64,000 nucleotides of DNA from an uncultured virus (IMG/VR IMGVR_UViG_2061766007_003888) (IMGVR_UViG_2061766007_003888); one strand, 5' to 3'; positions 8,833 through 62,222 are shown, counted from the first letter of the stretch. Program-made: numbers and translations. Notes: generated by a model not told the origin, from the letters alone.

Positions 8833-9037
8833 AATCTGTAGAACCGATTAGCGTTCGACTTCGATANNNNNNNNNNACCGAGTTCGCGGGGTATTATATG
8901 ATGGTATTCTATCTCGTCACGGTTTTCCGTCTGATAATCGCAGCCGGGCCAGTGACATATATATTTGAGCTTCACGCTTTATATATAAGAAAAACCGAAC
9001 GGGAATCGTTCGGTTTTCTTTTAATCTGTAGAACCGA

Positions 9038-10120
9038 TTAGCGTTCGACTTCGATACCCGTGGCTTCGAGTCCGGCAATAGCCTTTTCGATCTGGGCAGC
9101 TGTACCGGTAATGGTAACAGTGCTGGTGTCGAAATCAGATTCGTAGGTGACCTTGGAGTTGGAGTCAAGAATCATCTCAGCGGCGTCGACATCGTCGACC
9201 TTGACAGCGACGGAAGTCTTTTCGGAACGCGGAGCAGCGGCCGGACGGTCGAGCTTCGTCATTTCGATACCGCGCTTGCCGAGCATATCGGCGACGGCAG
9301 CAGCCTTGGACGGGGTAGCGATGAATTCGATGTTGCCAGCTTCGTCAGCGGTGGCGCCAGCAATACCGGCCTTGGAGAGGGCGATATTGACAAGCTTTTC
9401 CTTACCGGCCGGAACTTCGATGACATACTTGTCAGCGTTACGGGAAGCGCGAGAGCCGGCAGTGAGGTTGTTGATGGCGTTCTCGAGGGCGTTAAGTTCG
9501 ACTTCGTAAGCGTCGGCACCATCGAGTTCCCAAATCTGGGCGAGCTTGCCCTTCATGGATTCAATAGCGCGTTCGCCGCCGCCGGAACGGTAAGAGTTCT
9601 TGAGGCACTGGATGGCACGCTTGATGTTGCCAGTTTCGATGGCGGTATTGAAGTCAAGGCCGTCCTTGGCACCGTGGGTGGAGTTCGTGGTCTTGACGGC
9701 GTTGATGTCGTCATTGGCGATTGCTTCGGCATAGCCGCCGTCAATCATCATGTTGTAGACCTTGAGGTCGCCCGGATTGTAGTTTTCTTCGCCGTCGGCG
9801 CCCTGGCTTTCAATTTCAGCCTGGAGCTTTTCCCATGCATCGGCATACTTGGCATAGACCTTGTCACCGATGGAGGTATCCTTGGTCTTACCGGACTTGA
9901 AATTGGAACGCTTGGAGTCGATGGAGTTAATCAGGGAAAGACATGCGAGAGCGGCAGGACCTGCACCCTGGACCTTCTTGGACATTTCGTTCAGCATTTC
10001 CGGTTCAGGAATGCGTTCGACGATAGATTCAACAAGGCGGTCAAATTTTTCCCACTTCGGGTCTTCCTTAACCGTATAACCAACGGACTGAAGAAGTTTG
10101 GTAGCTTCGAAAAGATTCAT
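9038..10120 (-). CDS. hypothetical late protein, putative head-internal protein
   Basis: 360-aa ORF, AGGAG RBS, TATAAATA upstream, N-terminus MNLFEATKLLQSVGYTVKE. Confidence 0.7.
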   Translation of the reverse strand: MNLFEATKLLQSVGYTVKEDPKWEKFDRLVESIVERIPEPEMLNEMSKKVQGAGPAALACLSLINSIDSKRSNFKSGKTKDTSIGDKVYAKYADAWEKLQAEIESQGADGEENYNPGDLKVYNMMIDGGYAEAIANDDINAVKTTNSTHGAKDGLDFNTAIETGNIKRAIQCLKNSYRSGGGERAIESMKGKLAQIWELDGADAYEVELNALENAINNLTAGSRASRNADKYVIEVPAGKEKLVNIALSKAGIAGATADEAGNIEFIATPSKAAAVADMLGKRGIEMTKLDRPAAAPRSEKTSVAVKVDDVDAAEMILDSNSKVTYESDFDTSTVTITGTAAQIEKAIAGLEATGIEVER

Positions 10121-10220: not shown

Positions 10221-11525
10221 ATGAAACTTAACGAAGCAGAAACCGAAAAATTGTTCAGTATCGACGATATTGACACTGATTACATGATGCTCGATTTGGC
10301 CGACGCACCGGTTTCCAAACCGGAAGCCGTAATATATTTCGGTAAGGACGGAAAGATTTCCGGATTAGATACGATACTCATGTCTGTCGCCGTTCCGCCT
10401 CCGGTACCCGGCAAGAAATGTTCAGTGACAATCCAGTATACGCCGAAAAGCTACGATACGGACGTTACTACCGACCAGTTTACTGACGGCGTCTTCGAAG
10501 CCGACGAGACCGATGACGGCCTGATTGTCACGACGGAAGACCTGGAAGCCCTCGGCAAGATTATTTCCGCGGAGTTCGAACGCGAAGTCGATTACCCGTT
10601 CGACAACGAAAGCGTGCACGATAACGTCAACAATACGCTCAACCGTCTCGATTTCGCCGATGCTATCGCCTGGTACGTCAAGGAAGGCGCCGCGAAAACT
10701 ACGGAATACAAGTCTCTCTATAATGAATATATTAAGGAAAAGGACAAGAAACAGTCCGCAATAAAGGCCCGCGGCGGAAAGTCCAATAACGAGCTCCTCG
10801 TAGACGGCTTGAAAAAGAACCCGTATGTTACCAGGGTCGAAGTCATCGACAAGCAGACGGCAAGGTTTACCAAGTTGATCCGCGTCTATACGAAGATTAA
10901 CAAGGTTTACGACATCCTCTGCAATAGCGCCGGTACGAACTATGTGGTCAAGACCCACGGCGATTTCGGTAATTCAGTGAATACTGGTTCGTTCATGCAG
11001 GTCATAAGCAATGTCGGCAAGCGTATTACCGGTTTCATCGAACGTGAAAAGATGAGCAAGATGTCTAACCGTGAACGTCACGAGTATAACCGCAAGAAGT
11101 TGCAGGCAAGTCGTGAAGATGACGATGCAATCGACAACGACTGGGGTTCCGATATGGACGCGGACGAAGAAGCAGCTCTCGGTATCAAGGAATCTACCCG
11201 TTTCGAAAAGGAAATGTCCCTTTCCGAAGCCATAAAGATTCTCGAGGACCAGGGCATCACACTTCACGAACTGAACGAATCGGAAGAAATGGCGACTATC
11301 AAGTTTTCCGTCTATCTGAACGGCGAAGACCAACCCGAAGAAAAGGTCACGTGTACGGTTCAACGCCCGCTCAGCATAGCCAACATGATTGCGGATAATG
11401 GTAATAACTATGACGAAAAAACCAGTGAAAAATTTACCGATAGCGTACCGGATATAGTGTATAACTTGACCGGTAAGCATTGCAGTTATCACTGGTGCTT
11501 CGACATGACTCCTGAATTGGTATAA
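10221..11525 (+). CDS. hypothetical late protein, putative head-internal protein
   Basis: 434-aa ORF, TATAAATA at 10191 and AGGAG RBS; internal MSLSEAIKILEDQG motif. Confidence 0.7.
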   Translation: MKLNEAETEKLFSIDDIDTDYMMLDLADAPVSKPEAVIYFGKDGKISGLDTILMSVAVPPPVPGKKCSVTIQYTPKSYDTDVTTDQFTDGVFEADETDDGLIVTTEDLEALGKIISAEFEREVDYPFDNESVHDNVNNTLNRLDFADAIAWYVKEGAAKTTEYKSLYNEYIKEKDKKQSAIKARGGKSNNELLVDGLKKNPYVTRVEVIDKQTARFTKLIRVYTKINKVYDILCNSAGTNYVVKTHGDFGNSVNTGSFMQVISNVGKRITGFIEREKMSKMSNRERHEYNRKKLQASREDDDAIDNDWGSDMDADEEAALGIKESTRFEKEMSLSEAIKILEDQGITLHELNESEEMATIKFSVYLNGEDQPEEKVTCTVQRPLSIANMIADNGNNYDEKTSEKFTDSVPDIVYNLTGKHCSYHWCFDMTPELV

Positions 11526-11540
11526 GAATAAATTCAAAAT

Positions 11541-11570
11541 AAAAACCGGTCATTTGACCGGTTTCTTTTT
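11541..11570. terminator. bidirectional intrinsic terminator
   Basis: AAACCGGTCA-TT-TGACCGGTTT with A/T tracts on both sides, between convergent genes. Confidence 0.75.
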
Positions 11571-12594
11571 ATATCAGGAATTCGTCCATCGGGTTTTCCT
11601 CGAGCATCAGGTGCTGCCCGATTTTAATCCATCCGTTAATTCTGTACATCGTCTCGAAAAGCTGGCAGAACGACTTTCTGAACATCGTCTCGTAGTCTAC
11701 CGTGAACATGTTGTTGAATTCGTCGGGCCAGGTTTCCAGGAACGCGACAAAGTTTACCGGTTGAACACCCGGCTTGCCTATTTCCTTGTACTTGAACTCG
11801 TTATTCGGCAGGACATAGATATATTTCATCTTCGTGTTATTGCCGATTGGCGTAAGCTTGAGTCGCTTTTTTGCCAGGATATAATTATATATCAATGCGG
11901 CTTTTGCGCCGAAAATAACGGAAGTGTTCTCGCCCTTGTCGAACTCGAGACCGTTCTTCACGTAATAGTCGATGTCGTTAGGTATATACTTCTTATAGTT
12001 CGTGATACCTATGACTGCGGAAATTTCGTCAATCGGCGTCTTGCAGTATTGTTCGTATACCTTCATTATTTCGCGGTCGCAATAATCCTTTTTCGCGCCT
12101 GCACATATTTCAAATGCGAGCTTTTCTGCAGCTTCCTTACAAAAGTTTGGCATAGTGCTCTTTTTTATGCCTACACCCATAATTTTATGTTTCGGTTTGC
12201 TGAATGGATATGGGTGCCCTTCCTTATCGATAATATTACCTATATAAAGTTTACGGGCAAAACAAAACATATTCTTGAATATGTTTTCGCGATTGAATTT
12301 AATTTTATTCGTCGTATTTGTTTTTTGCGCGCGAATTAATAAAATTTTATTGAAGAAAGTTTGAAATACATGTTCGGCTTTTTTATAAAAGTCACGATAT
12401 TCTTCTTCCGTTTCAATTTTGACACCGGATTCTATTAATTTGCGCTTAAGTTCATTGATAGAAAAATATACGGATATCTAGGAGTCTGTGTCGTTATGTA
12501 CGGCACAGACATCCCTCCCTTTTACTTTAAGCGGTTCATGATTTTTAAATGTAAAATTTTCGTGTTGAATATAATCAACTTTATAAAATTTCAT
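11569..12594 (-). CDS. family-B DNA polymerase, C-terminal half (motif C, thumb), with in-frame TAG at codon 39
   Basis: ATG at 12594: MKFYKVDY...VCAVHNDTDS*ISVYFSINEL...KFNRENIFKNMFCFARKLY...KIMGVGIKKS; one frame throughout, only interruption is TAG at 12480-12478. Confidence 0.85.
12472..12483 (-). other. candidate programmed translational bypass site (TCC-TAG-ATA-TCC)
   Basis: matched Ser codons around a stop; skipping 9 nt restores DTDSVYF. Confidence 0.6.
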
Positions 12595-12601
12595 AATTAT
12601 A

Positions 12602-12609
12602 AAATATAG
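12602..12609 (-). promoter_or_regulatory. CTATATTT promoter-like motif for the polymerase C-half
   Basis: same motif precedes genes at 710, 15923, 23881, 28467, 32617, 42808 and 51049. Confidence 0.5.
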
Positions 12610-12612
12610 TAA

Positions 12613-13581
12613 TTAATTGTTGTTGTTATGAATGTTTGAAATAATATTTAATATTTTATTCTTCTCGGCATCTTGATTATGCAACCAATCGTATTCTTTA
12701 ATACGAACCAATAAAATACCTTTATTTTCACATAATAAATCTTTTTTATGATCTTGTTCCCATATATCCTTTGCGGTAATACCGGAATGTATAATAGTAT
12801 CGGGTTCATAAAATCTCGGATCCGCATGCCAGTATTTACCGTCAAATTCGAAAGCCAAATTTAATTCCGGCAAATATATATCAAGCTCTTTCCCGTCGAG
12901 AATCTTACGATCATTTCTTATAACATTTACATTTGTATTTTCTGTAATAAAATTATAAAGACTATTTTCACCGTCAGATGTTATCCCGGATATATGATTA
13001 CAATTCGTACATAATGGTGTATGAAGTATTAGGCGTATTTTTAGCGCCTGGTTCATAATATAAAAATCTGTATTACATATATTACAATGGCACTTATATA
13101 ATAAATTATTATATTCAATTAATTCACAATTTTGTCGACGTATTTCTTCTTGATATTTTTTAAATACATATTCTGTATTTCTAATTCGATGTAATTCTTT
13201 TGATTCTTCGGTATTATACAGATAATCGTGCCCATGTTTTCTTATATAATTGTCACGAGTATCAGCCCTACTTGAAACACCATTAGGAAACCAATTACCA
13301 TTTTTGCGTCGAGAATCGACAATTTTTTGATTTCTATCAGATGAATGTGTAGAGCAATAATTTGAACAATATTGATTATAACCTGTTTTTAATTTATTCG
13401 AAAACTTGGTAGGATTTCCGCACGCTTTACATATACCTTCATCTGGCGTTTTTAAAAATTGATCATAATATTCTTTTGCCGATAATTTATGCAATTTCTG
13501 AAAATGAGTACAAAGTGCATTTAAATTCTTAAATGTTTTATGACATATTGCACAAGTTGGTTCTATATCTCTATTATTCAT
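12613..13581 (-). mobile_element. free-standing homing endonuclease (zinc-finger N-terminus + Vsr/EDxHD/DUF559-like nuclease) inserted in the polymerase gene
   Basis: CAIC..H..H / CKAC..YCSNYC N-terminus; ELDIYLPELNLAFEFDGKYWHAD...DHKKD...GILLVRIKE C-terminus; AT-rich; overlaps the N-half stop. Confidence 0.8.
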
Positions 13582-15923
13582 CAATTCCTAGCATATCCGT
13601 ACTTTCATTAAATTCACATGCGTCGATCGATATTTCTTCGCCGTTACGTAATACGGTAATTTTATCATTATAACCATATGTATATATTTTATTATTTACC
13701 GTTAAATTTATGGTAGAATATTCTTTTTCGACATCTTTTATCAATGATACCGATTCATAATATTCGTTAAGGTACTTGGTCAGCCAGTCACGAAGCGTAA
13801 CACGGGCAGAACGACAAATAACACGTGCGCAATCTGGATCGTACAGGTGAAATCCCGGTGCAAGGCTTACACCGTAAACGGAGTTAATAATAATCTTCTT
13901 TACGCCCTGTCTATTGTCGTAAAGGTTGGCAAGTTCCATATTTCCGGCGTTTTCTGCCTCTTCCTGTAGGTCCTTATAATGCTTGCGTTCATCGAAAACC
14001 TTCTTGACGACATTCGGNNNNNNNNNNACCCTGCCTGTTGTCGTAAAGGTTGGCAAGTTCCATATTTCCGGCATTTTCTGCCTCTTCCTGCAGGTCCTTA
14101 TAATGCTTGCGTTCATCGAAAACCTTCTTGACGACATTCGGAAGAATCGCGTCGTCTGTCCTCAAGAAACCAACCTCGTTGACATCCGTAAGTATGACCT
14201 TACCGGATTCAATATCGATTTTCTTCGGATGGATAACCTTTACTTCAGGCGATATATTGAACTGCATGATATGGTGCGGGTAGGAAGACGTAATATCGAA
14301 CGACATATCGTCGTCATGCCTACCTGGATAATCATAACAATAACCGGCCTTCACCTGGAATTCAGGGAACGGATGTGGCCATTTCTTAAACTGTGAGTAG
14401 CTCGCGTTAAACAGCTGCTTCGACGTCAGACGGACACCGCGAACGGTCTTCGGTTTCCAGAGCTGCTCTATTTTCGCGATATGCTCTTCTACCGGATGGC
14501 CAGTATATATGTCGTTCATTATCAGGTATTTTTCGAATTCCGGGTTATTGTCTTCCCATTCTGTATTCTGATAGTAAATCGAGCCGTCGGCCTGCGGAAT
14601 CATGTAGCATTTTTCTTTCGCCCACCAGTCGACATGAGTTTTCTTCTTGTCATTCAACACGCGGTTCGTTTTATGCAAGAACCTAAGAATATAACCTGTC
14701 GTCGTAGGTACCTTGTTATAGATCTTGTCGAGCGTAACAATACAGTCGAACGCGTATTCGATAATGAGTTCGAATAACTTGAGCTTGTCGAAAAGCTTTT
14801 CGAGAAGAATAACGTCCTTGATATTATAGCATACGAAATTATCCCAGTCTGTCTTATAGGCTTCGTTGATGGAACCCGTATATTTCAATTTCTGGTCGCC
14901 AAGAACAAGATTGGAAACGAAGTTCAACGAATACGACGGTAATGGGTCATGCTTACCGAATGTCTTGTAGAGTTCCATGAAGTCTATAGAATAAAGCCCC
15001 GGAATTTCGAACGTGGCGCCGAGATCAACACCCTCGAGTTTACGGTCGGTAATCTCGTGTTTTACTGGATCAAGATTCAATGGCGACATCGCACGTTCCC
15101 ACATTACGTTTTTACCCGTAATTTCGCGGAGTTTCGCACAACGGTTAATGATATACGGAATATCATACGATACAGAATTCCATCCGGATATGATATCGAA
15201 ATCCATCGAACGGAACCATTTGAGCCATTTCCGAATCAGGTCTATTTCAGAAGAGCACGCTATATATATCGTATTGTTCAGTTTATCCTTGTCACCGAGA
15301 TACGGCTTCAGACCGAACGTATAACGTGTCTTTGTCTTAGTAGAATAGCACGTAATGAGGTTTATCGGCCAGTCTGCTTTTTCGGGCGCCGGAAATTCAT
15401 ACGATACGTAACATGAATTCGCGAATTTTACCCAGCAATTCTGTTCAATGTCGAATACTTCAAATTCTTCTTTCGGATACTTCATGTCGAACATATACAA
15501 CTCGACCTTCTTGAAAATCTTCTTTTCAAGATTACGTATATCTATCTCGAAATTGTCATAAAATTTCGATGAACCGGCGACTTCAATATCGAACAGACAT
15601 ACATTCCAGTCGTTGATATCGACTTCGAGATTCTCGAAGTCATATCGTTCGTGCATGAACTTGACTTCAGGCCGGAGGTCAGATTCGGCAATTATACAAT
15701 TGGAACTATTGCGCAAAACATCCATATCGCGGTCGCGGTTATACGAATGTTTCTTGACAGGATTCTTGTATATATCCTTGATGTTCGATTTGCCCGTAGG
15801 ATCCGTTATATAGCACCACGGCTTGTAATCGTAGGTGACCCAGTCTGTCGAACCCTGTTCCTTGAGCAATATCTTTCTACGCGAACGATCATAATAACAA
15901 TTTTTAAAGCCTAATTTCGCCAT
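13574..15923 (-). CDS. family-B DNA polymerase, N-terminal half (exonuclease, motifs A and B); duplicated segment at gap ~14018
   Basis: FDIEV (ExoI), GWNSVSYDIPYI (ExoII), YNIKDV (ExoIII), FDITSSYP (motif A), KIIINSVYG (motif B); no DTDS before the stop. Confidence 0.92.
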
Positions 15924-16007
15924 ATCAAAATAACCTAAAATACATATTAAATATAGAAAAATGGCGCGACTTGAAAATCGCGCCAATTTTTATCTAATTT
16001 TTTAATA

Positions 16008-16727: not shown

Positions 16728-16749
16728 TTATTTATTTTTNNNNNNNNNN

Positions 16750-17944
16750 TTCCTTCACGATTTCAACAGGCGGCTCAATAACGGGATCTTCAACAACTTC
16801 AAATTCTTCTTGCGGAACATCAGGTTCGCTTTCTTCAACGACAGGCTTGTTCGCATTCTGCTTCTTGTCAATCGCCTCCTGCATCAACATCGCGTTTGCC
16901 TTGACACGGCTTAGCGTATCGTTCTGCTTCTTGCTCTGTTCTTCGTCCTGCTGGATAAGGGCTGCGCTCAATATGTCAGAGTTTGCAGATTCATTCATCT
17001 TTATGAATGCGGAATTGAGCATTTCGTTTTCGTCGAGCTCCACATTATTTTCCGGTTCGATGATTTCAGGAGTTTCGACGACCGTATTTTCCTTAACAGG
17101 AGCCGGCTGAGGCCTGTAAACAGGCTTTTCGCGTATTACCGGCTTTTCGATATACTTGACGACTTCTTTCGGTTTCGGGTTGATAATGGCTTCGAAAATC
17201 CGTTCAAGATGCTTATTGATCTTCTCGAGACCAGACATACCGTACCTATAAAATGCATTCTCGATTTTCTGCTGCATCTCGTCCATCATCGTATATGCGC
17301 GAGAAAGCGCCGGATTGGTATCTACGCTTTCCTTAATATGACGCTTTCTCTGCGGTACAGCCGGTTCGTCATCGAACAAATCATCGTCGGGTTCCTGCGG
17401 AGGTTGATACGGTTTTACACGCTGCGGTCTTGGCGCCGGAGCGGGAGTGGCCGGTTTCGGCGGCTGGGGTATAGGCCTGGTAATCGGCCTGGAAGTATTC
17501 GGCCTGTACGGGACACGGGCGCCTTCCGTCAACTGTGTATCTTCGAACTCGTCAGCTTCGAAGTCTTCTTCCGGCGGCAGGGTTTCATTATAGAAGTCAT
17601 CGTCTTCGTTCTGGAAACGTTCCGCCATAAGCGCCTTCTGTTTCTTATGNNNNNNNNNNTGCGGGTGCGGCCGGCTTCGGCGGTTGGGGTATAGGCCTGG
17701 TAATCGGCCTGGAAGTATTCGGCCTGTACGGGACACGAGCGCCTTCCGTCAACTGCGTATCTTCGAACTCGTCAGCTTCGAAGTCTTCTTCCGGCGGCAA
17801 GGTTTCATTATAGAAATCGTCGTCTTCGTTCTGGAAACGTTCCGCCATAAGCGCCTTCTGTTTCTTATGAAGTTCAAGACGCTGTTCTTCAGTCATAGAA
17901 CGGCGTTCTTCTTCTTTCTTGTAATAATCCATGAAATCACTCAT
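16750..17944 (-). CDS. Pro/Glu-rich hypothetical protein (gapped, duplicated)
   Basis: MSDFMDYY... start with TATAAATA upstream; frame continues after gap. Confidence 0.55.
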
Positions 17945-28467: not shown

Positions 28468-28554
28468 AATATTACTCCTTAAAATTTTATACAAATATAG
28501 CTAAAATGTATATAATGAAAAAACCTAAAAAATTAATTTTAGGTTTTCTCGTTT

Positions 28555-32617: not shown

Positions 32618-32707
32618 GTTAAACCTTTTTAATAAATAGAAATCCAATATTAAATATAGAATAATTTTGTAAATTTTTATTTACAAAATTATTTTTCCGG
32701 ATTTTCT

Positions 32708-38174: not shown

Positions 38175-38523
38175 TTTTTGACAATGCGAGCGGGAGAGAT
38201 CAGAGCCTAGACAGGAACATAATCTAGACTTCTCTCGACTTTCCTTTTTGCATAAAGCTTCGCGGTGTCGATCTTACGGGCCTTACGTAACGGCTTACGG
38301 GGCGGTCATCCTGTACTCCGGCTATATCCGATACTGCCATGGCGGCTGTACGTACGGCGTGCCCGCCGTACTTCGCTGGTACTTTCATTAACAGTGATCG
38401 TACGTATACGATATGCCTGCTCATTTCTGGAAAACCCGTACCCGGTTTTCAATGGCTCACCCTCTACCGATAGCGCCATTGGGTTGTGCTTCGTTCCGAG
38501 GAATAAGTCTTCAATGTCGAAAA
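38175..38523 (-). ncRNA. candidate ~350-nt structured non-coding RNA
   Basis: no convincing ORF; end-to-end closing helix, several hairpins, CTATATTT promoter motif immediately upstream. Confidence 0.55.
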
Positions 38524-38572
38524 TCAAATATAGGTAAATAAAAATTTTCGTAAACTTATTTTTGAAAAACTT

Positions 38573-40712
38573 CTAGAAATCTTTCTTTTTCTTGACTTCC
38601 ATGACACGGAACTTGACCTCGCGGGAACGGATCATGTCGTCAGTTATGGCGCTGTACGTGACCGTTGAGCGCTGTCCCTGGCTGATTCCCTCGCTGTCTA
38701 CGGTCACGACGTGGCCGTGTTTCAAGGATTCTGCCGTAAATTTACCCCTGTTTTCTCCAGAAACGCTATCCAGGTCAATCGAAACGACGAGGGTGGTATC
38801 TTTATCGAGTTTTCTGTTCTGGAGCTCCTGGAGGTCCGAAATGGAGTTAATCTGAATATCCAGAATTTTGGCCTGGCCCTTGCCGGTCGCGTTAATCTGG
38901 CGCACCATCTCGTCGGACACGTAGTCCTTACCGGAAGAGACACCGGTAAGCCTCTTGTCCAATTCCAGTTTTTTCGAAAGTTCAGTAGAGGTGTACGCCG
39001 CGCACCAGCCGTTCGATTTCGTATTCCTGAAGGTATTCTGGTCGATTTCCTTGTTCTTGTCGTAGTTTTCAGCGCTGAACGGGTTTCCCGACGACTTATA
39101 CTGCGTAGTCCTGCCGGTATACTTGAGCGATTCCATCTCGTTCTCGAGCTGCATTTTCTGCTTGAGCAGGTGGGCGATGTCGCCGATATTCTCGGTTTCG
39201 AAAACGTTGTTCTGCGTCTCGTTGCGTAATTTCCGGAATTCCGTACCGTCTATGCCGTCGGTCGCGTCGACGCCGAACTTGTACTTGATTATGAGCATGT
39301 CGCGTTCTTCTTCCGTCATGTCGTTGTACATGCGGTTGAATTCCTCGTGAGCCTCGCGTTTCGCGTAGAGGTCCGAAGAGTTGTCGGTATATTCGTTCAC
39401 CCATGCTTTACGGGCTTCGTTTATATATTCCTCACGGTTGAGGTCTATGGACTTCTTGAAACCGGAATATACGAGTTCGTTATTNNNNNNNNNNTCGTAC
39501 CGTCTATGCCGTCGGTCGCATCGACGCCGAACTTGTATTTGATTATGAGCATGTCGCGTTCTTCTTCCGTCATGTCGTTGTACATGCGGTCGAATTCCTC
39601 GTGCGCCTCGCGTTTCGCGTAGAGGTCTGAAGAGTTGTCGGTATATTCGTTCACCCATGCCTTACGGGCCTCGTTTATGTATTCTTCGCGGTTGAGGTCT
39701 ATGGACTTCTTGAAACCGGAATATACGAGTTCGTTATTGGTGTTGTCGATTTCCTCGATTTTCTTCGAAATCTGTTCGCGTTTCGCGTTGANNNNNNNNN
39801 NCGTTGTCGATTTCCTCGATTTTCTTCGAAATCTGTTCGCGTTTCGCGTTGACCTTGTCGTTCTGGGCGAACCATGCGCGTTCCGTCGGCGTAGCGTGTT
39901 CGAATTCCCATTTTTCCGCCGTGTCAATCTCCTTCTTGAAGTTTTTCTCGGAATACGACACGACACGCTCGCGCTTACCCTCGGAGACCTTGAATTCGGA
40001 AATTTCTTGTTCCTCTTCGTAGACGTATTCGATATAGAACGTAGCCGTAAGGTCTACAGGGTGACCGTAGTCGTTGTTGTTGAAAGACGGCGTGTCGTAT
40101 GCTTTCAGGAAGCCTACGTATACCTTGTTGTCGACGATATTCCGCATCGATTCATCAAACTGCGTTATCTCGATATTCAGGAGAGGGTTCTTTCCCGGAT
40201 TGTTGAACGCATACGGCCCGAGCTGGGACACGATGAACTTGTACACGTCCATGTTGTCCGTTTCCTCGAACGTTATAGTCATTTCTGTATCGCTGAACTT
40301 GAATACGGGTACCAGATACTGGGTATTCCCGAAATACTGGCGGTTCGCCATGTCGAGCTTGAAGACCGGTTGAGATATTTTCTTGACCGCGAACGTCAGG
40401 TAGTCCGTCTCGGAACGGTTTCTGTCGTACGGCCAGATNNNNNNNNNNTACGTCCATATTGTCCGTTTCCTCGAACGTTATAGTCATTTCTGTATCGCCG
40501 AACTTGAATACGGGTACTAGATACTGGGTATTCCCGAAATGCTGACGGTTCGCAGTGTCGAGTTTGAAGACCGGTTGGGATATTTTCTTGACAGCGAACG
40601 TCAGGTAGTCCGTCTCGGAACGGTTTCTGTCGTACGGCCAGATTTCGCACTGGAACCTGTACGTCACGTGCGGCTTTATGCTGTATATCTGGTATACGTT
40701 CATTAGCGACAT
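38573..40712 (-). CDS. tail-tube/baseplate-initiator-like N-domain with C-terminal CHAP/NlpC-like domain (fragmented)
   Basis: YRFQC...VKKISQP...MTITFEET (gp19/gp54-like); GWCAAYTS...HGHVV Cys/His pair. Confidence 0.5.
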
Positions 40713-42808: not shown

Positions 42809-42892
42809 TTCAAGATTTCCTATTATTCAAAATTAAATATAGTATATTTCGGGACCAGATAGTAGTTTTCGGATAAAATCCGGTTTTCTTAA

Positions 42893-51008: not shown

Positions 51009-51048
51009 TATATAATAATGTTAAAAAATTTTTGCTATATTTAAATGT

Positions 51049-62107: not shown

Positions 62108-62222
62108 TCAAGACCTTTTCAATTTTTATATTATTTATAATTTTTGCGACTATGCATGTCCGTAAAACGAAAGGCCCCGTATTGATATTATAAATAATGA
62201 AAGAAAATATAGGACAATATAC

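Follow-up and report, generated by a model that had tools for sequence, protein, structure and literature searches.

A putative short translational hop travelling with a homing endonuclease in the split DNA polymerase gene of ruminant gut phages

Introduction

The DNA of an uncultured virus (IMG/VR IMGVR_UViG_2061766007_003888), analysed here as one stretch of 64,000 nucleotides (nt) that is called the window below, encodes a family-B DNA polymerase in two halves with a free-standing homing endonuclease between them, and the coding sequence of the second half is interrupted, directly after the catalytic motif C (DTDS), by 9 nt that open with a stop codon. To judge from the alleles compared, the interruption is probably crossed by a short programmed translational hop, which would travel with the endonuclease as one mobile cassette. 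By analogy, the best reading of the locus is an independent and much shorter analogue of the mobA/gene 60 system of phage T4. The balance tilts slightly towards a fuller proposal, namely a second, independently evolved phage bypass in which peptidyl-tRNA-Ser hops over 7-9 nt, driven by a hairpin, and in which the arrival of the cassette turns an unsplit polymerase gene into one that is both split and hop-dependent.

The coding gap and its alleles

In the window, the Ser codon of DTDS (TCC, 12483-12481) is followed by TAG ATA TCC and then by GTA, and behind the gap the frame is open and polymerase-homologous down to position 11569. Interrupted alleles were available as DNA from four sources, i.e. 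the window and the contigs L001, L016 and L130, which represent two lineages (Table 1). The gap opens with a stop codon in all of them (TAG in three, TGA in one), and the Ser codons that flank it are always TCY, with TCC/TCC in the window and L001, TCC/TCT in L016, and TCT/TCT in L130; both bracketing codons can thus be read by one tRNA-Ser. Removal of the gap in silico restores DTDSVYFS or DTDSCYL, identical to the uninterrupted relatives. The insert had at first been taken, from the sequence alone, for a fixed 9-nt element, and this had to be given up, since the alleles have gaps of 7, 8 or 9 nt. Such lengths do not keep the frame and rule out simple read-through, and they are the best argument for a hop.

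Table 1. Interrupted alleles: last codon before the gap, gap, and first codon behind it.
Allele	Before	Gap	After	Gap length
Window	TCC	TAG ATA TCC	GTA	9 nt
L001	TCC	TAG A TCC	GTA	7 nt
L016	TCC	TAG AAA TCT	TGT	9 nt
L130	TCT	TGA AG TCT	GTC	8 nt

Both the 7-nt and the 9-nt forms are real. The 7-nt form was found on the backbone of the window in contigs of three other studies, with 0, 0 and 4 other differences in 451 nt; contigs of four runs were examined, of which three, each from a different study, had contigs spanning the gap and the fourth did not. Further alleles are represented by proteins only, and their gaps were deduced solely from the overlap of reading frames. A diagnostic feature is the N-terminus MSVPYITTQTPRSVYF, or MPYITTQTPRSVYF where the start is GTG, which belongs to a shifted frame that only a gap of 3n+1 nt gives, and it occurs in 6 distinct proteins on 14 contigs; the protein of 233 amino acids (aa) that is expected of the 9-nt allele was found as 2 sequences on 7 contigs. 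With the 42-aa upstream open reading frame (ORF) of L130 as query, 18 clusters of mini-ORFs were retrieved, some of them on contigs of 300-375 kilobases (kb). Ten of these clusters stop right after DTDS, seven continue out of frame, and one is uninterrupted. The seven, which run through a Leu or Arg codon, are compatible with 8-nt gaps that lack a stop, in the manner of the gene 60 variants with a 'hungry codon'.

In the protein P0027, the C-part of which starts with MYVQSIGDTDS, this motif is affected by another kind of break. Here, MYVQSI is the +1-frame reading of DVCAVH, and the allele seems to carry a 1-nt disruption just 5' of DTDS, which would be compatible with CAT AGG T. The 90% cluster of P0027 includes an unsplit polymerase of 998 aa (P0050).

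The different gap lengths could also be decoded by a mixture of recoding events, the 9-nt gaps being read through and a shifty stop causing a +1 or +2 frameshift in those of 7 and 8 nt, which would leave two to three extra residues after DTDS. The 9-nt gaps are indeed in frame, a stop after a slippery codon is the classic context of +1 frameshifting (as in prfB), and elsewhere in the gene a +1 shift at AAA AGG C is required in alleles of the L016 type (see below), which suggests that frameshifting may be common in it. On the other hand, three mechanisms would be invoked where one suffices, as a single hop mechanism would account for all four alleles. Gaps of 7 and 9 nt are interchangeable on one backbone, re-pairing from UCC to CCU would be poor, and the repeated Ser codon is not predicted by such a mixture. 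In addition, the extra residues would lie right after the catalytic aspartates, where none of 31 uninterrupted IMG/VR contigs has any. Mixed recoding is regarded as improbable.

Next to no credence is given to a reassignment of TAG to an amino acid, by which the gene would be continuous with three extra residues. Recoded TAG occurs in large gut phages, and the gap of the window is in frame and opens with TAG. The 7-nt and 8-nt alleles, however, are out of frame, and L130 uses TGA, both of which contradict the idea. Moreover, TAG closes 4 of 26 hand-picked long ORFs of the window, including a gene of 1616 aa with a stop that overlaps the next start, and no tRNA gene, a suppressor included, was found in the window. 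TAG is an ordinary stop codon in this phage.

Selection on the sequence behind the gap

The substitution pattern argues that the part behind the gap is translated. The window and L001 differ by about 10% in DNA across the locus, and the 301 codons after the gap carry 79 synonymous and 4 non-synonymous differences between them, which gives a ratio of non-synonymous to synonymous divergence (dN/dS) of 0.008. The first ATG, GTG or TTG in the frame of the C-part behind the gap of the window is the ATG at 12270, 68 codons on. These 68 codons, which precede that canonical start, show 21 synonymous versus 2 non-synonymous differences, as compared with 2/18 and 0/16 in the other frames. The C-parts of L016 and L130 are likewise constrained in comparison with that of the unsplit relative L017, with a proportion of non-synonymous differences (pN) of 0.10-0.19 and a saturated proportion of synonymous ones (pS).

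Such values bear on the possibility that the interrupted alleles are merely broken genes, produced by endonuclease damage or by assembly artefacts, and that another polymerase replicates the phage. It is true that several kinds of frame break cluster in the polymerase gene of endonuclease-bearing alleles, and that metagenome assemblies may fix minority variants. Decay, however, is at odds with the low dN/dS behind the gap in strains about 10% apart in DNA, and with the conservation of the endonuclease itself (dN/dS 0.033). The gap also recurs in independent assemblies (the stretch is present in 14 studies, and three of the four examined runs have the gap), and no second PolB relative was seen among the ORF lists of the window, which is the scope of that observation. 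The broken-gene explanation is considered very unlikely.

The hairpin and the proposed decoding

When about 100 nt of RNA around the take-off site were folded, each of the four interrupted alleles gave a predicted hairpin, and the two uninterrupted relatives that were folded gave none. The z scores were -2.85 for the window and -4.13, -4.86 and -1.64 for the other interrupted alleles, versus +0.70 and +0.14 for the uninterrupted relatives. On an alignment of the four sequences its 16 pairs are 89% formed, as compared with 45% at most when the 3' partners are slid by 1-3 columns. Compensatory changes affect two pairs: one is G:C to A:U in L016, and the other, again G:C to A:U, is found in L130 and joins the third base of the take-off codon with an upstream Arg codon. 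The sequence around the hairpin is conserved at the nucleotide level as well, since the 66 nt 5' of the gap are the same in the window and L001 apart from a 2-nt indel, against a divergence of about 10% in the flanks. Between the same strains, 2 substitutions fall in the 114-nt mini-ORF, and the flanks would lead one to expect about 11.

In the proposed decoding, the ribosome would pause with peptidyl-tRNA-Ser on UCC or UCU and with the stop codon in the A site. The tRNA would then release its codon, the mRNA would slip by 7-9 nt, and the same tRNA would re-pair at the next UCC or UCU, where decoding would resume. The product of the hop would read DTDS-VYFS, as in the uninterrupted relatives, with the junction peptide ...HNDTDSVYFSINELK. 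When UCC occupies the P site, the mRNA channel would contain the 3' arm of the hairpin but not its 5' arm, so that re-folding of the hairpin behind the ribosome could pull the mRNA forward by roughly the length of the gap.

Arguments against a hop

Several points weigh against this reading. The covariation in the hairpin is weak with four sequences, as 62 of 500 shuffles equalled the observed score, and the hairpin lies within conserved coding sequence, where it could serve another purpose. The four interrupted alleles come from two lineages, and common descent therefore explains part of their agreement in matched codons and hairpin. One protein, P0048 (1 contig), has Thr where the landing Ser is expected. 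Spontaneous short hops in Escherichia coli are inefficient, and the polymerase here is a replicative one. Alleles of the L016 type, furthermore, have a second frame break downstream, AAA AGG C GGA: the L016/L175 contig reads ATT AAA AGG C GGA GAT (L016:3330-3350) where relatives have ATT AAR AGR GGN/AGY GAT, and a +1 shift at AAA-AGG-C is needed to pass it. Truncated proteins of 202 and 188 aa that match this break recur (P0054 on 4 contigs, P0055 on 3, P0056 on 3, P0057 on 2, and others), and the sequence behind it is still constrained (pN 0.19 and pS 0.69 versus L017). Frame breaks in the polymerase gene are therefore tolerated by some route, not necessarily by hopping.

Other observations of this kind agree with the main rival explanation, a polymerase in three pieces, in which a 38-aa peptide ending in motif C and a separately started C-part, made by re-initiation or from an internal start, would assemble with the N-half via the tails. 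In L130, a TTG overlaps the TGA of the gap and might start the C-part, and in the 7-nt allele of L001 an ATG lies 12 codons upstream in the frame of the C-part, immediately preceded by GGGAGGG. The proteins P0008 (MSSVYFS...) and P0027 (MYVQSIGDTDS...) start at or near the junction, and two-piece split polymerases are functional, namely gp43 of T4-like phages as cited in the excerpt of Dassa 2009 (PMC2677866) used here. The window and L016, however, have no ATG, GTG or TTG near the gap in the frame of the C-part, and in the window the codons before the first such start are constrained nevertheless. On the same backbone, the upstream ATG of L001 is no longer in frame when the gap has 9 nt instead of 7, and no fixed-frame solution is shared by the two forms; the spacing from GGGAGGG to this ATG is only about 1 nt. 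Three separate pieces would also leave unexplained why the gap ends in the same type of Ser codon as precedes it. A three-piece polymerase thus appears unlikely, and the hop, for which the matched codons and the frame-breaking gap lengths speak, is preferred.

The endonuclease in the break

The start of the endonuclease ORF overlaps the stop of the N-half by 8 nt. The product matches phrog_3339, 'homing endonuclease' (E 4.5e-26), and consists of an N-terminal C2H2 zinc finger and a C-terminal Vsr-like nuclease. By sequence only, matches to Vsr, DUF559 and MTES_1575 fell under the curated cut-offs, and a search against the PDB gave zinc-finger matches and a non-significant 3r3p only. The sequence-only reading had named a Vsr/EDxHD-like enzyme, and structure prediction bore this out. 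An AlphaFold2 model made from a profile of 37 homologues (predicted local distance difference test, pLDDT, 88) had as ranks 1-4 in Foldseek the E. coli Vsr protein (1cw0, 1vsr) and the catalytic domain of I-Bth0305I (3r3p), with 1cw0 and 3r3p as the best matches, a probability of 1.00, E values of 4e-3 to 2e-2, and a template modelling (TM) score of 0.74-0.79 on 3r3p. The residues E232, D234, E245, H252 and K280 are invariant across the 37 homologues. A Vsr-like, or EDxHD, homing endonuclease fold is assigned on the strength of this model.

Between the window and L001, a strain 90% identical, the endonuclease gene has 87 synonymous and 20 non-synonymous differences, and the resulting dN/dS indicates a maintained gene. 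The endonucleases of the two lineages are barely alike (22% identity, E 0.004), which recalls the endonuclease replacements noted for gene 60 cassettes in the cited part of Manning & Atkins 2022 (10.1101/2022.08.31.505936).

Two other kinds of mobile element were considered and rejected. A group I or group II intron carrying the endonuclease was sought by an Rfam scan of 11400-14100 (E<=1), which gave four weak, unrelated matches and no intron. A split intein was not supported either: no Hint or intein Pfam match at E<=0.1 was found on either side, and the two tails at the break lack intein termini.

Relatives of the polymerase and the border of the cassette

Relatives of the polymerase occur in three states. 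In the first, the gene is unsplit (23 IMG/VR contigs), with 246 nt between motif B and DTDS. In the second, found in 8 contigs from two clades, the gene is split at the same point as in the window, with the same kind of tails, i.e. about 42 aa at the C-terminus of the N-half, absent from unsplit relatives, and about 16 aa at the start of the C-half, and has no endonuclease; the two halves directly adjoin or share up to 17 nt, which are read in different frames. An example of the overlap is seen in L002:5880-5900, L008 and relatives, in which ...GVEDEICKS, closed by a stop, lies over ATGAAATTTGTA. The position of the C-half ATG in these endonuclease-less split alleles is occupied in the window by the ATG of the endonuclease. 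The third state, split with endonuclease, is that of the window, L001, L016 and L130.

The gap was present in all four endonuclease-bearing alleles, the endonuclease of L130 being seen only as its last 72 aa on the contig, and in none of the 31 endonuclease-less IMG/VR contigs (8 split, 23 unsplit), a count that overstates independence since the four come from two lineages. It was absent as well from 7 further endonuclease-less metagenome loci, at least one of which duplicates an IMG/VR contig.

The sequences on the two sides of the gap have different affiliations. Over the 69 nt before it, the interrupted alleles are 84-100% identical to one another (window and L130 90%, window and L016 84%) and only 54-64% identical to their nearest uninterrupted relatives (window and L002 62%, L130 and L017 54%). 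Over the 69 nt after it, the window is 55% identical to L130, 48% to L016 and 67% to L002, whereas L130 and L016 are 70% and 68% identical to L017, respectively. The same holds for the proteins. The 22 residues before the gap in L016 and L130 share 91-95% identity with the window and 59-64% with L017; for the C-part proteins of these two alleles, identity is 82-86% with the unsplit L017 and L046 and 62-63% with the window. This flip of affiliation at the gap indicates that tails, endonuclease, the stretch up to DTDS and the gap were placed together into an L017-like unsplit backbone. On this comparison, the gap is the 3' border of the cassette, and the cassette appears to be mobile, having entered at least two polymerase lineages, one of which is otherwise unsplit.

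That insert and endonuclease form one cassette had been proposed beforehand, and the proposal agrees with both the co-occurrence and the mapping of the 3' edge to the insert. The accompanying claim that the endonuclease split the polymerase gene stood in part: the enzyme does sit in the break, but it need not have caused it, as 8 contigs of two clades have the same split without endonuclease or insert. Either the split is older or the endonuclease has been lost from these alleles. By analogy, they fit the loss series of gene 60, with the endonuclease lost first and the bypass next, and with the split and tails kept; alternatively, the split may be older than the endonuclease and independent of it.

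Indirect hints that the enzyme may cleave alleles without the element, and home into them, come from its patchy distribution and from the borders of the cassette. A function in self-protection, already proposed in the sequence-only reading, is suggested for the gap by the gene 60 precedent and by the logic of the target, i.e. conserved DTDS-coding DNA at the border of the cassette. Most likely, the gap disrupts the recognition site of the endonuclease within this conserved DNA, so that the carrier allele would remain uncut.

Comparison with known systems

For gene 60, the hallmarks listed in the cited part of Manning & Atkins 2022 (10.1101/2022.08.31.505936) are matched or wobble-matched codons, a take-off site followed by UAG or UGA (or the rare AGG), a stem-loop on the 5' side, extra tails, and successive losses that lead to split genes without endonuclease or bypass. 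The 5' stem-loop is proposed there, and in the cited part of the preprint of Wills et al. 2024, to pull the mRNA forward. In the same part of 10.1101/2022.08.31.505936, MobA elements are described as being exclusively in Topo2L and bypassing of the gene 60 type as confined to topoisomerase genes, and the cassette is called unique. The parallel to mobA/gene 60 that the sequence-only reading drew holds for the split gene with its tails, for the endonuclease, and for the gap after a stop with its matched codons, and it can be extended. In both systems, as far as the cited descriptions go, an essential replication gene is split with short tails at the break and a free-standing endonuclease within it; the gap lies shortly into the downstream ORF, starts with UAG or UGA, is bracketed by codons of the same tRNA and follows an upstream stem-loop; and the cassette occurs in several host lineages, some relatives keeping the split without endonuclease and gap. 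Some metagenomic gene 60 cassettes are described as having Vsr-type endonucleases in place of MobA.

The differences are as clear. The host gene is a polymerase here and a topoisomerase (II large subunit) there, and the gap is 7-9 nt long here as compared with 20-50 nt, which leaves no room for a take-off stem-loop within the gap or for a mini Shine-Dalgarno sequence 5-7 nt before landing. Take-off is from Ser UCY here and from Gly or Asp there, and the take-off codon forms part of the 3' arm of an upstream hairpin instead of the 5' arm of a take-off stem-loop. Unlike in gene 60, the gap directly follows catalytic residues. No likeness to gene 60 was seen beyond the shared hallmarks, as judged by the features published in the cited excerpts and not by sequence comparison. 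The polymerase cassette works like gene 60/mobA but is not a member of that family.

Short hops described for E. coli in the cited part of 10.1101/2022.08.31.505936 are similar in that peptidyl-tRNA leaves a codon followed by a stop and re-pairs a few nt further on, in any frame, over a distance of the same order (6-9 nt); the first hops to be described used, according to the same source, 9 nt for one amino acid. Unlike them, the gap in the polymerase gene is natural, is conserved across diverged strains, lies in an essential gene, and is accompanied by a predicted hairpin and a mobile element. The hops of E. coli come from laboratory constructs or mutants and are inefficient.

A split T4-type PolB with an endonuclease between the two genes is also found in T4-related Aeromonas phages (gp43; Petrov and Karam, via Dassa 2009, PMC2677866), and the PHROG families of split PolB halves, phrog_2062 and phrog_1918, match here. 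One of the Aeromonas cases has a GIY-YIG endonuclease instead of a Vsr-like one, and the excerpt used reports no coding gap or recoding for them. The fractured genes of the same source, together with I-Bth0305I (3r3p), share with the window a Vsr-like fold between the halves of phage replication genes, and its SbcD-like fractured gene without intein has short inserted tails at the fracture point. Most fractured genes described there use split inteins, whereas there is no intein here and the tails total about 58 aa. Finally, the 'byp' elements in mitochondria of Magnusiomyces capitatus are, in the cited part of 10.1101/2022.08.31.505936, natural and efficient bypasses over short mobile inserts with matched codons. 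They differ in their length of 27-55 nt, in their mitochondrial location, in the lack of a link to an endonuclease there reported, and in the use of an undecodable sense codon instead of a stop.

Layout of the locus and origin of the stretch

All elements of the locus are on the minus strand (Table 2). The order N-half, endonuclease, C-half and the sequence TCC TAG ATA TCC GTA after DTDS, both pointed out in the sequence-only reading, were reproduced at the same coordinates.

Table 2. Features of the polymerase locus, in window coordinates.
Feature	Position	Strand	Remarks
Family-B DNA polymerase, N-half	13574..15923	-	ATG 15923; TAA 13576-13574
Free-standing homing endonuclease, 322 aa	12613..13581	-	ATG 13581; TAA 12615-12613
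Spacer from endonuclease stop to C-half ATG	12595..12612	-	18 nt; contains CTATATTT at 12609-12602
C-half, first 38 codons	12481..12594	-	tail of about 16 aa, then polymerase through motif C (DTDS); ATG at 12594; closes with HNDTDS
Predicted RNA hairpin, 16 pairs	12480..12515	-	3' arm ends at the take-off UCC, paired with upstream GGA
9-nt coding gap	12472..12480	-	TAG 12480-12478, ATA, proposed landing TCC 12474-12472
Rest of C-half (palm after motif C, thumb)	11569..12471	-	coding resumes with GTA 12471
Terminator-like hairpin	11541..11566	-	just 3' of the polymerase stop codon
AT-rich tract	12150..13800		GC 0.25-0.34 versus 0.40-0.46 on either side

The polymerase is of the family-B (T4 gp43) type. 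The N-half has an exonuclease domain (PF03104, E 4e-15) and a polymerase domain with motif B, and motif A is also present; PF00136 and PF20286 match the tail piece of the N-half. The profile phrog_262 matches the N-half with E 1e-76 and the C-part with E 3e-31 (profile positions 581-839). Exonuclease and polymerase domains, motif B (KxxxNSxYG) and motif C (DTDS) are all found in the translations.

The motif in the spacer, CTATATTT, occurs 13 times in the window as compared with 3.7 expected, a count reached in none of 100 shuffles. Its sites are at 697-704, 12602-12609, 15949-15956, 28493-28500, 32652-32659, 42835-42842, 51035-51042 and 62205-62212, and there are five others, mostly a few to about 30 nt 5' of an ORF start on the same strand. 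From this distribution it is a candidate phage promoter or start-region motif.

A tract richer in AT had been described at about 12100-13770, and the plot of guanine-cytosine (GC) content agrees with it; the tract spans the tails, the endonuclease and the start of the C-half and reaches about 200 nt past the gap. Stretches with GC of 0.54-0.58, in a genome of about 40% GC, were seen at 9000-9900 and 17250-17700, the latter coding for a proline-rich segment of low complexity. The claim that the sequence has no gap from 11569 to 14017 is also correct, as the nearest run of undetermined bases (10 N) begins at 14018. This run (14018-14027) is inside the N-half and outside the region of interest, is flanked by an overlap of about 107 nt that is repeated with a few single-nucleotide polymorphisms (SNPs), and looks like a scaffold join. 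More short N runs, flanked by the same repeated sequence with few SNPs, lie near 16730-16745 and 17640-17655, and the stretch HKKQKALMAERFQNEDDDFYNETL... is present in both ORFs 16732-17736 and 17645-17944. As a scaffold, the window joins overlapping contigs of strains that differ slightly, and ORFs over the joins are duplicated artificially. Elsewhere, a 361-aa ORF (38573-39658, minus strand) ends in TAG and is followed in the same frame by 89 open codons (38306-38575), which could be a small in-frame neighbour gene or a read-through extension.

The window belongs to a lineage of large ruminant (cattle, sheep) gut phages. The stretch is present in 20 runs of 14 studies, labelled as bovine, sheep or simply gut metagenomes and none of them listed as RNA. 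The polymerase relatives L005, L172 and L174 are on contigs of 415,750, 411,059 and 424,163 nt, respectively, so that the lineage includes very large phages. Cultured phages gave matches of less than 30% protein identity (T4-like and cyanophage gp43) and no DNA match. In IMG/VR, a search with a single protein gave 12 loci and a search with an alignment of 21 C-parts gave 33 contigs. A metagenome scan with a degenerate VHNDTDS pattern, which covered 22 of 64 parts, gave at least 118 stretches, at least 9 relatives and at least one new interrupted allele. Pattern scans for DTDS followed by TGA or TAA (IMG/VR) or by TRR (GTDB genomes) gave 8 loci, none of them polymerase-homologous.

Significance

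Full-text searches of the literature gave no report of bypassing in a polymerase gene, nor of the combination described here. The three components that the locus combines are each known already, namely a PolB divided around an endonuclease, fractured genes that harbour free-standing endonucleases of the Vsr-like kind, and hopping over a stop codon across a short distance. Programmed bypassing has hitherto been based on yeast mitochondria and, in phages, on a single system, that of gene 60 with its homologues, which all lie in topoisomerase genes. If the hop is true, 'endonuclease plus bypass' would be a recurrent strategy of selfish elements and not an oddity of T4, and inserts that are hopped over would be a general means by which homing endonucleases shield the carrier allele in highly conserved coding DNA. 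A gap of 7-9 nt with one hairpin would also offer a far simpler model for the release and re-pairing of the ribosome than the 50-nt gap of gene 60. Annotators would likewise be warned that the protein of a seemingly 'broken' polymerase gene in a large gut phage may be intact.

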